From IMG/VR virus record IMGVR_UViG_3300035492_000236: 64,000 nucleotides of DNA; one strand, given 5' to 3'. The position numbers and the translations under genes are program-made. Below are positions 28,890-31,325 of this stretch, piece by piece. Position 1 is the first letter of the stretch; every line of letters begins with the position of its first letter. The stretch is from a virus (Duplodnaviria > Caudoviricetes). The notes beneath the pieces were generated by a model. The model was not told where the DNA came from and did not search any database. It saw nothing but the letters and a program-made list of their open reading frames with translations.

Positions 28890-29351
28890 ATGAGAAAAAA
28901 TGAACAGCGCAGGCCCCGCCCGTCAAGAAAGACTCGCAACAAAAGCTACCGCAGTCCTGAGCCAAGACTGGACATCGATAGCAAAGGCGCACACAACCGT
29001 GAGGTTATGTTTCAATTGCGTGCATGTGATGAGTTTATTGATCAAGTCAATGGAACGTTACAGGTCTTTGCTAAACGTATTGACCGCGATGGTCGGACCG
29101 CACTGGGCGAGTACCACAACGAGTGTGTGACCATCCTCGACACTATCAACGATGACCTGCACGATTTCTGCAGCAAGCTCAAGCCGCTGCAACAACAGGC
29201 CAAAAGTTTCATGGATAACCCGCAAGGTGAAGCCTGGGAATGGACCATGAATACTCATTCCATCTGTGAGTCGCTGAACCTGCTCCGCGACCAGTACGTT
29301 ACCCTGTATATGGCCAACTACAACTCCCTGATGGATCAACTCGATCGCTAA
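28890..29351 (+). CDS. Hypothetical coiled-coil protein
   Basis: 153 aa with a basic N-terminus and a helical body. Confidence 0.7.
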   Translation: MRKNEQRRPRPSRKTRNKSYRSPEPRLDIDSKGAHNREVMFQLRACDEFIDQVNGTLQVFAKRIDRDGRTALGEYHNECVTILDTINDDLHDFCSKLKPLQQQAKSFMDNPQGEAWEWTMNTHSICESLNLLRDQYVTLYMANYNSLMDQLDR

Positions 29352-29365
29352 CTGAGGATACATTA

Positions 29366-30877
29366 ATGTCTAACGAAGAAGTGCAGCACACCCACCCTGC
29401 CAATCACGAACCGTTGCCGACCGAAGTCGAAAACACCCCGCCTGCTGAATCCGTCAATGTTGAGACGGCTGCATCGGGAACGGTGGACGACAGCGAGCCT
29501 GCACTGGCCGAAGTGGCGTATGAGCAGACCGCCCCTGCCGTTGAAGAAGGTGTCGCCAAAGGCAATCTCCAGTACCAGCCACAACTGACGTTCTACAACT
29601 ACGGCATGGAAGTGCTAACTAAATACACCCTTAATGCCGACATCGACACTGAAGTGGTCAGTAACTACACGCCGGAACTGATCCACACCGACAAGTTGAC
29701 CGAAGCAGACACGTACTGGTCGCAACACATTCGTCGTGAAGGTGGTGCGGTAATTGGACCCCGTCGTCCCAGACTGGCCTCTACCGGTGGTACCCTGACA
29801 GGCATGGCAGCCATCGAGTCAATTCGTCGGGTGGCTGGCGCTGGCGGCTCCCTGACCTACGAACTGGCCCATAGTGGCCTGGTAATCACAGTTACACCGG
29901 TCAAAGAAACCGAGATGATCGATTTCGAGTTTGATCTCACTCGTGCTGCCACTCAAGTTGGTCTGTCCACCACCGGTCTGCTGCTGAACGGGCGCAGTGG
30001 TGTGTTCAGTGAAGCCCTGGTGAACTTGGCGCTGGATCACATCACCTCGTGTAACTTCAAGGAAGTGGGTACTAACTTCCGAGCACTTGCTGACTACATC
30101 GATCCGCTCGACTATGGTGCATTAATCTGGGGTATGTTGGCCACCACCTTGGCCAACGGCCATCCGTGGGAGTTTGCCTGCACCAACGGCGAATGTAAAC
30201 ATCGCCGGGAAGCGCTGGTGAACTTCTCACGGATGTTGTGGGTGAACCGCAATGGCCTGACCGAAAAACAGCAGAACATGCTGGTCAAGTTCAGTAACAA
30301 CATCACCGCCGCCCAACTGACTGAGTACCGTCAGGAGTTTACTGACAAGGCCGCCACCTACACCATGAGTACAGGGGTGATCGTCCACTGGCAACGGTCT
30401 ACTCTGGCCGAGTACCTGCGTCAAGCCAAAGAGTGGGTCTCTGCCATTGAGAAGCAGTACAACACGGCCATGACCAACTACTTTACTGAAGCGGAACGGC
30501 GCCGTTACCTCAATGGGCAAATCCAGGCCCGGCGGATGCACAAATACATTCACCAGGTCGGTAAGATCATGGTTCCGTCTGCGGTCGAGGGTGAGTATGA
30601 TGAGATCGTCGATCGCGATGCAATTCATGCGGTTCTGCTGGAGCTGACTGCCATTACTCCCGACATCCGTGAGTTTGAAACTGCTGCCGTGGACTACATC
30701 GAATCCAACACTGTACAAGTGGTCGGCTATCCTGGCGTGAAGTGTACCAAGTGTAACCATGTGCCGAAGGGCCGCGGTGGTGAATTCCGTAGTATCGTGC
30801 CGGTCGCGGTGGATCGGGTGTTTTTTACGTATGTTCAGCGGAAAACTTTGGCCTTGATGGATCTGGCGACCGTATAA
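29366..30877 (+). CDS. Conserved protein (phiKZ gp77-like); candidate tail/baseplate assembly chaperone
   Basis: 503 aa with two Cys pairs (CTNGEC, CTKCN) as in T4 gp26/gp51-type assembly factors (inference). Ends 51 nt after a T6 slippery run. Confidence 0.6.
   Translation: MSNEEVQHTHPANHEPLPTEVENTPPAESVNVETAASGTVDDSEPALAEVAYEQTAPAVEEGVAKGNLQYQPQLTFYNYGMEVLTKYTLNADIDTEVVSNYTPELIHTDKLTEADTYWSQHIRREGGAVIGPRRPRLASTGGTLTGMAAIESIRRVAGAGGSLTYELAHSGLVITVTPVKETEMIDFEFDLTRAATQVGLSTTGLLLNGRSGVFSEALVNLALDHITSCNFKEVGTNFRALADYIDPLDYGALIWGMLATTLANGHPWEFACTNGECKHRREALVNFSRMLWVNRNGLTEKQQNMLVKFSNNITAAQLTEYRQEFTDKAATYTMSTGVIVHWQRSTLAEYLRQAKEWVSAIEKQYNTAMTNYFTEAERRRYLNGQIQARRMHKYIHQVGKIMVPSAVEGEYDEIVDRDAIHAVLLELTAITPDIREFETAAVDYIESNTVQVVGYPGVKCTKCNHVPKGRGGEFRSIVPVAVDRVFFTYVQRKTLALMDLATV
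30819..30827 (+). promoter_or_regulatory. Candidate -1 programmed frameshift site GTG TTT TTT ACG
   Basis: Six consecutive T in Phe-Phe codons. The -1 frame is open from 30793 to 31272 with no ATG/GTG/TTG before 30925. Confidence 0.5.
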
Positions 30878-30924
30878 CTGCGGAAACGTTTTCTACACGT
30901 TGGGATAAGAATGGGCAAGACGCG

Positions 30925-31272
30925 GTGGCTGAACTGTTGGCCACCGATACTCACCAGGTCGAGGACGGCATTCAGTATACCGAGAGTTTGCGCTACTTGC
31001 GTGAAGCTTATGACGAAAACTTCCGGCTGGAAACCGGTCCAACCGGGGTGGAGATGTGTGACAGTGAGCACGCGACCCGCGGGTCGCTGTTTGAATACTG
31101 GATGGGTAAGTTCGTACAGTTTCAAATCGCAACGTTATTCAACATCTCCTTGAACGAGTACCTAGACCAACCACGGTTTCGCATACAGGCAATGAACCGC
31201 ATCGCTGAACAAGACAGTCACAGTGAGGTGGCAACTGCCAATCGGCTAGCTAGCCAGCTCGGTAAGAAGTGA
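30925..31272 (+). CDS. Small protein, or C-terminal extension of the gp77-like protein via -1 frameshift
   Basis: GTG start with no clear RBS; the frame extends upstream to 30793. FNISLNEYLDQPRF resembles the C-terminal T-domain of tail assembly chaperones (inference). Confidence 0.65.
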   Translation: MAELLATDTHQVEDGIQYTESLRYLREAYDENFRLETGPTGVEMCDSEHATRGSLFEYWMGKFVQFQIATLFNISLNEYLDQPRFRIQAMNRIAEQDSHSEVATANRLASQLGKK

Positions 31273-31288
31273 CAAACAAGCGGACATC

Positions 31289-31320
31289 AGGTATGGGCCT
31301 AAGCCCATACCTACTTTTTT
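31289..31320. terminator. Terminator between convergent genes
   Basis: Stem AGGTATGGGC/GCCCATACCT followed by a T-run. Confidence 0.8.
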
Positions 31321-31325
31321 GTGCA

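Follow-up and report, generated by a model that had tools for sequence, protein, structure and literature searches.

A core jumbo-phage gene with a probable programmed −1 ribosomal frameshift close to its 3′ end: comparative evidence

Introduction

Several phage and bacterial genes yield two protein isoforms through a −1 slip during translation, and a probable further case is described here from a 64,000-nucleotide (nt) stretch of a virus (Duplodnaviria; Caudoviricetes; IMG/VR record IMGVR_UViG_3300035492_000236; the whole stretch is hereafter the window), in a gene for a 503-amino-acid (aa) protein of the phiKZ gp077 family. In phage T7, gene 10 (products 10A and 10B) has a −1 slip at G_GUU_UUC, a U-rich site read by tRNA-Phe in the closing part of a large gene of structural type, and 10B is the minor isoform with a different, longer C-terminus; in phage P2 the slip heptamer is T_TTT_TTG, a T-run site. 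The lambda gpG/gpGT, P2 E/E+E′ and Mu systems have the layout proposed for the window gene, a −1 slip close to the gene's 3′ end with a minor extended and a major short isoform, as set out in a 2016 recoding review (PMC5009743), and resemble it further in that no strong stimulatory structure is evident and the arrangement is kept across highly diverged sequences. Escherichia coli dnaX (tau/gamma) is similar in using a −1 slip on a homopolymeric heptamer to give two isoforms with a common N-terminal body.

The differences are also clear. Compared with lambda, P2 and Mu, where the upstream protein has ~140 aa, the window protein has 503 aa, its gene lies beside neither a tape-measure nor a tail-tube gene, and in the structure model the slip would replace a helix that forms part of the fold of a large protein. 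T7 10B adds ~50 residues that form no conserved separate domain and needs distal 3′ sequence, whereas the extension here, 148–177 aa long, is retained throughout a phage group and includes a helical domain that is conserved. In dnaX the heptamer A_AAA_AAG is accompanied by a Shine–Dalgarno (SD)-like element upstream and a hairpin downstream, and slippage yields the shorter of the two products; for the window gene the search for stimulators found none, and slippage would yield the longer product.

The family, represented by Goslar gp081, phiKZ gp077 and RAY gp267, is entered as cg18 in the core genome of chimallin-encoding phages (Table S3 of PMC10299810), where it is listed as 'hypothetical protein', without a chimallin-specific mark, and is common to nucleus-forming jumbo phages and some relatives. 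No description of a frameshift in this gene was found in the literature, phiKZ and jumbo phages go unmentioned in the searched portion of the 2016 review (PMC5009743), and none of the 22 GenBank records of the locus carries a joined coding sequence, all listing two genes. The 'gp77' of the Goslar, PhiPA3 and PCH45 papers are other proteins and were set aside. The mechanism is of a known kind, while recoding in this gene family, and its conservation throughout the family, appear to be undescribed.

Results

Layout of the locus

The 503-aa open reading frame (ORF) occupies 29366–30877 on the + strand and ends in TAA (30875–30877). The original prediction, made from the window sequence alone, had placed GTG TTT TTT ACG at 30818–30829, 16 codons before this stop, and had described a −1 frame open from 30793 to 31272 without a start before GTG 30925 as well as a 635-aa slip product, and the sequence and its translation bear out each of these statements. 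A run of six T (T6) lies at 30821–30826, GTG 30925 is the first ATG, GTG or TTG of the −1 frame and lacks an SD element, and the sole earlier near-cognate codon is ATA 30874. A slip after F487 joins 487 residues to 148 others (635 aa), with a junction reading ...DRVFF-YVCSAENFGLDGSGDRITAETFSTRWDKNGQDAVAELL..., and the predicted tryptic junction peptide of this form in the window phage is VFFYVCSAENFGLDGSGDR. Gene callers give only a 115-aa ORF, from GTG 30925, for the −1 extension. The elements concerned are as follows, with AlphaFold2 abbreviated as AF2.

29366..30877, + strand: zero-frame gene of the 503-aa short isoform, phiKZ gp077 / Goslar gp081 / RAY gp267 family (cg18), with evidence from PHROG, tblastn, HMMER, AF2 and Table S3 of PMC10299810
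30820..30826, + strand: candidate slip site G_TTT_TTT; the P- and A-site Phe codons are F486 and F487, and the U_UUU tetramer is in phase
30827..30877, + strand: dual-coding overlap; the zero frame gives the last 16 residues, TYVQRKTLALMDLATV, and the stop, the −1 frame YVCSAENFGLDGSGDRI
30826..31272, + strand: −1 extension of 148 codons and a stop; a ~50-residue poorly ordered linker, then a conserved helical domain
30878..30936, + strand: linker of the extension, past the zero-frame stop and ahead of any well-placed start, with a coding-type substitution pattern
30925..30939, + strand: candidate internal starts; GTG 30925 without SD, TTG 30937 with an SD-like GGTGG at 8-nt spacing

This layout is best explained if a core jumbo-phage gene undergoes programmed −1 ribosomal frameshifting close to its 3′ end, a reading to which a probability of about 0.8 is given on the strength of sequence comparison. 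Most ribosomes would stay in frame through GTG TTT TTT ACG and stop 16 codons on, making the 503-aa protein. The smaller share, holding tRNA-Phe at the two TTT codons of 30821–30826, would move back one base on G_UUU_UUU, re-pairing perfectly in the A site and at two of three bases in the P site, would read TAC at 30826 next and would continue to 31272. The resulting 635-aa isoform would have its C-terminal helix swapped for the ~50-residue linker and the conserved helical domain.

Conservation across loci

The locus was compared across 31 loci, namely the window, 22 GenBank phages and eight metagenomic contigs, at 20–70% protein identity to the window; an IMG/VR search gave no locus with a single-protein query and one with a 13-sequence alignment query. 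In 30 of the 31 the −1 frame is open from a run of five to eight T (T5–T8) at Phe-Phe, past the zero-frame stop and into the annotated downstream gene, a recurrence well beyond chance, and the relatives, in line with what the original prediction required, keep the T run and lack stops in the equivalent of 30826–30924. The exception is the Xanthomonas phage RTH11 (OQ790161.1; L010:2651–2657), which has T7 in place of the expected T8 and retains each of the conserved tails with a one-base shift in register; its annotated 627-aa gene runs on through ~70 codons of non-homologous sequence, and the two remaining frames carry the short tail and the extension. Because both tails are kept, a homopolymer error in the record is probable, or else this is a real length variant.

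Both F486 and F487 are at least 90% conserved in the family, and the motif stands in the zero-frame phase that allows −1 tRNA re-pairing in all 30 loci scored, the window among them. Among these 30 the heptamer is T_TTT_TTT in 11, T_TTT_TTC in six, T_TTT_TTA in AgentSmith and T_TTT_TTG in pEa_SNUABM_54, so that a full T_TTT_TTN is present in 19; G_TTT_TTT occurs in five (the window, its three nearest relatives L023–L025, and L029), A_CTT_TTT in pVa-21 and pVp-JHP1101, and A_TTT_TTT, A_TTT_TTC and G_TTT_TTC in one locus each. Given this variation the sole universal motif is an in-phase T_TTN (30/30) after a codon ending in T. The A-site codon may be TTT, TTC, TTA or TTG, as the Z_ZZN rule allows. 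The P-site Phe codon, by contrast with Phe codons elsewhere in the same genes (TTT in 188 of 529, 35.5%), is TTT in all 27 loci that have Phe there, and RSL2 and Xoo-sp14, with TTT at none of their 18 and 14 other Phe codons, have it at the slip site. The slippery nucleotides are thus under selection beyond the need for the amino acid.

Several features of the −1 frame indicate that it is read from the slip site. Counted from there, the extension is 148–177 aa long in all loci, while the first canonical start varies in position between 12 and 87 codons. This start is found after 85 codons in phiKZ, 87 in AgentSmith, 77 in Ea277G, 68 in RAY and 74 in L023, the closest relative of the window, and in these five it falls past conserved motifs of the extension such as [GR]H[VIL]x5FG and AYD. 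In phiKZ the annotated genes PHIKZ077 and PHIKZ076.4 are 218 nt apart. Between the slip site and the first start there is not one stop in the 1242 codons summed over loci, where composition predicts ~63. Sixteen distinct distances (79–103 codons) separate the slip site from a nearly invariant Glu, every one in frame, which implies repeated indels that all preserved the frame. Within the window clade, changes in the linker (30878–30936) number 69, 67 and 137 at codon positions 1, 2 and 3, and the sole indel spans a single codon; farther downstream, the accepted coding part shows the same pattern (74, 59 and 153), and the linker therefore evolves as coding sequence. Across the overlap (30827–30877) both frames are kept in comparison with pVa-21 and L023–L025, at a lower substitution rate than in the flanks.

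In-frame fusions of the two parts were absent among the best 150 of 1159 family representatives, all of which stop shortly after the FF region, and none was found with the extension as query for longer, fused proteins, which is weak evidence. Overall, the −1 ORF is open from the slip site and conserved as a protein, with no conserved start of its own. With a −1 slip and a coding linker, the 'downstream gene' would be mainly or only the second half of the trans-frame product.

Slippery motif, stimulatory RNA and points of doubt

Heptamers of the form H_HH.U_UU.Y are among the most efficient in E. coli (PMC4066793), and the T_TTT_TTY of relatives falls in this class; after A_AAG, the best tetramers in E. 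coli are U_UUC and U_UUU (PMC4066793).

A number of observations nevertheless weigh against a programmed ribosomal frameshift. Support for the trans-frame protein is comparative, and since the loci share ancestry, counts such as 30 of 31 are not of independent events. The window heptamer is imperfect, with G in place of T at its first position, pVa-21 has A_CTT_TTT, and what is universal is the U_UUU tetramer only; tetramers alone were barely shifty in an E. coli reporter (PMC4066793). A stimulator was sought as pseudoknot-free secondary-structure folds and SD-like sequences, and none emerged: the 103 nt from the slip site of the window show no gain in folding over shuffles (z +0.89), a consensus fold for six close relatives reaches −6.2 kcal/mol with one covarying pair, z averages −0.66 for the downstream folds of 28 loci (one below −2, one at −2.00), and no SD-like element is common to 28 loci, GGTGG being found only in the window, L023 and L024. 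With no stimulator found, the long isoform is probably a minor product. Further, TTG 30937 has its SD-like sequence and is aligned with an ATG in four relatives (L024, L025 and pVa-21 among them), pVa-21 having GAGGAA just 5′ of its ATG, so that a free-standing short form of the extension may also be made; in the window clade this start may be a second, independent route to the C-terminal domain.

The 67 nt past the slip site of the Pseudomonas phage Psa21 (L011:2613–2680) fold unusually well (z −3.6), followed by those of Noxifer (z −2.0), and by these folds some lineages may have a stimulatory structure of their own. A second run of at least six T elsewhere in the main gene is present only in the Erwinia phage Wellington (L003) and a close metagenomic relative (L028).

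Alternative explanations

The 635-aa protein could also arise by normal translation if the phage RNA polymerase inserted an extra U at the T run in some transcripts. As the product would be identical, all comparative evidence for the extension fits such transcriptional slippage equally; many relatives have T7–T8 runs, UUUUUUU is noted as prone to it (PMC4066793), and a hairpin and T run occur together at 30800–30829. In the window, however, the run is no longer than T6, in pVa-21, Noxifer and PS119XW the −1 frame is still open and conserved with T5, and the invariant is not run length but the in-phase T_TTN with a TTT (or CTT) P-site codon, all of which leaves slippage of the polymerase unlikely, with the slip more probably at the ribosome. 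The hairpin itself (six pairs, CCGGTC...GATCGG, immediately 5′ of the T run) was scored as terminator-like; its stems are weaker or different in the nearest relatives, and it may therefore be due to chance.

Somewhat less probable still is a pair of ordinary genes, in which the downstream ORF would start by itself at GTG 30925 or TTG 30937 and the open −1 frame would be a by-product of overlap or composition. All GenBank records annotate the locus in this way, and the SD-like GGTGG of TTG 30937, the ATGs aligned with it in L024, L025 and pVa-21, and the GAGGAA of the last are in keeping with it. Start positions are unconserved, though, even in the closest relative: L023 has GTA at the position of GTG 30925 and a Phe codon (TTT/TTC) at that of TTG 30937, which speaks against the independent start at 30925 that the original prediction had named as the competing possibility. 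Two genes would also put the first start of phiKZ, AgentSmith, Ea277G, RAY and L023 past conserved motifs, would not account for a linker that evolves as coding sequence and holds its frame through sixteen length variants, and would leave the TTT bias of the slip site unexplained. It is very improbable that a single 635-aa gene was split by a homopolymer sequencing error or by a recent frameshift mutation. Homopolymer runs are error-prone and the RTH11 record apparently has a one-base discrepancy, but the same −1 offset is found in 30 records that are independent and come from many laboratories and platforms, and this recurrence excludes sequencing error; moreover, the tail of the zero frame is conserved in its own right, with a confident helix in the model, the searches for an in-frame fused form gave none, and T6 is agreed by four assemblies. 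These are tar-pit metagenome run assemblies in which 30500–31300 of the window is identical and free of indels; they may be the source samples, and they show only that T6 is reproducible. The contigs that carry this region in the four runs have depths of 7–36×.

Gene family and predicted structure

The 503-aa protein matches PHROG 4585 (E 6.5e-93) and PHROG 8054, and the −1 part matches PHROG 7580 (E 1e-23) and PHROG 12109, all four annotated as of unknown function; neither part matched in Pfam at E ≤ 0.1. Homologues of the gene were found by tblastn in 201 jumbo-phage records, phiKZ PHIKZ077 included, with Pseudomonas, Erwinia, Salmonella, Serratia, Klebsiella, Ralstonia, Vibrio, Xanthomonas and Bacillus as hosts, and an exhaustive HMMER search of a representative library gave 1159 family clusters (50% identity).

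The AF2 model of the 503-aa protein (76-sequence alignment) is an alpha/beta structure with two Cys pairs, predicted with a local distance difference test score (pLDDT) of 89 and a template modelling score (pTM) of 0.86. The slip site is at the start of its final helix (482–502), of which the last 16 zero-frame residues are a part, and the long isoform would consequently lose that helix. In the model of the extension a linker of low confidence leads into a small helical domain predicted with confidence, with pLDDT above 90 at extension residues 90–130. No match in the Protein Data Bank (PDB) was found by Foldseek at E ≤ 0.001, and VIA-align against solved structures gave Z ≤ 6.6 for the main protein, to helical hairpins only, and Z ≤ 5.0 for the extension; these null results do not show either fold to be new. 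Sequence searches of solved structures with the window protein and phiKZ gp077 gave nothing meaningful, and the ESM Atlas features of the extension pointed only to unnamed viral clusters, with scores below 0.9.

Comparison with tail-assembly chaperones and T4 hub proteins

A pair of the tail-assembly chaperone type, G/GT, had been proposed for the locus, and of this proposal the comparative evidence favours the frameshift with its extended product but not the chaperone identity. What the locus probably shares with G/GT is a −1 slip, close to the 3′ end, by which a C-terminal domain is gained. The upstream protein, at 503 aa, is far from the ~100–150 aa of the chaperones and has no match to a chaperone family (Pfam at E ≤ 0.1, PHROGs), and the G/GT position between tail-tube and tape-measure genes is seen neither in the window nor in relatives. 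Nor did PHROGs, Pfam or fold searches lend support to the suggested resemblance of the end of the extension to chaperone T domains. The likeness to G/GT is one of recoding layout, not of family membership.

The proteins gp26 and gp51 of T4 are another point of comparison. Both match PF12322 over their full length (216 and 178 bits; L031:3803–5229) and are thus paralogues, and they have in common with the window protein that they are viral proteins with CxxC motifs. By ESM Atlas features the neighbours of the window protein are for the most part clusters with minority PF12322 members (the cluster with a 24% share scores 0.91), a structural neighbour at a template modelling (TM) score of 0.49 is a cluster with a 14% share, and the label 'putative baseplate hub assembly protein' is carried by two GenBank homologues. 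T4 gene 26 also yields two products (26 and 26′), but 26′ comes from an in-frame internal start, and the T4 proteins have 208–249 aa against 503 aa here. None of 76 family members matched PF12322 at E ≤ 0.01, nor did any match in NCBIfam; a six-frame PF12322 search of the genomes of five relatives was empty, with the controls silent too, and the family (A1) profile found nothing in the T4 genome. With hhalign, A1 against a 10-sequence gp26/gp51 profile reached 29% probability over 14 columns, covering the CPxCG knuckle only, and 13.8% and 7.5% against the single T4 sequences. The link to gp26 and gp51 is a lead only. Apart from this, the gp51 homologue of Acinetobacter phage Berthold (MN709128.1) is labelled 'tape measure protein assembly chaperone'.

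As a best guess, from the weak similarity to gp26 and gp51, both isoforms would have a role in virion or baseplate-hub assembly. It is conceivable, though doubtful, that the frameshift is an ancient and obligatory feature of a core morphogenesis gene in phiKZ-like phages and relatives, including a Bacillus phage, with the minor long isoform as an adaptor set by stoichiometry. The gp077 body would then sit in an assembly complex, possibly that of the tail hub or tape measure as a very distant gp26/gp51-like chaperone, and the helical domain would recruit a second partner, making the pair a functional counterpart of G/GT on an unrelated, much larger scaffold and the long form a hidden member of the jumbo-phage core proteome.

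If the frameshift is real, all these phage genomes are mis-annotated at this locus, and the small 'downstream gene', whose called start varies by record, is part of a second isoform. The jumbo-phage core proteome would be enlarged by a conserved domain that is apparently missing from the published core list (supplementary files of PMC10299810); RAY gp266, the gene downstream of gp267, is absent from those of the files that were searched. An isoform pair of fixed ratio, as in assembly factors like G/GT, would also give a concrete handle on cg18.

Neighbouring genes

The pair lies away from any tape-measure gene, as had been stated at the outset: around it in the window lie the genes for an RNA polymerase beta subunit, for a ~286-aa protein without an assigned function, for a virion structural protein and for a helicase, with neither a tail-tube nor a tape-measure gene among them, and relatives are alike in this. 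Most loci keep the order of a ~280-aa gene on the opposite strand, a ~150-aa gene and the gp077 homologue. Two further features flank the recoded region.

28890..29351, + strand: syntenic small upstream gene, 153 aa, in the phiKZ gp078 position, by gene order in relatives
31289..31322, + strand: intrinsic-terminator-like hairpin (10 pairs, six of them G-C), then a T run, directly 3′ of the extension stop

From its sequence, the hairpin at 31289–31322 is likely the end of the transcription unit. The downstream ORF is also present on a database contig of 385,734 bases, and the phage genome may thus be very large.

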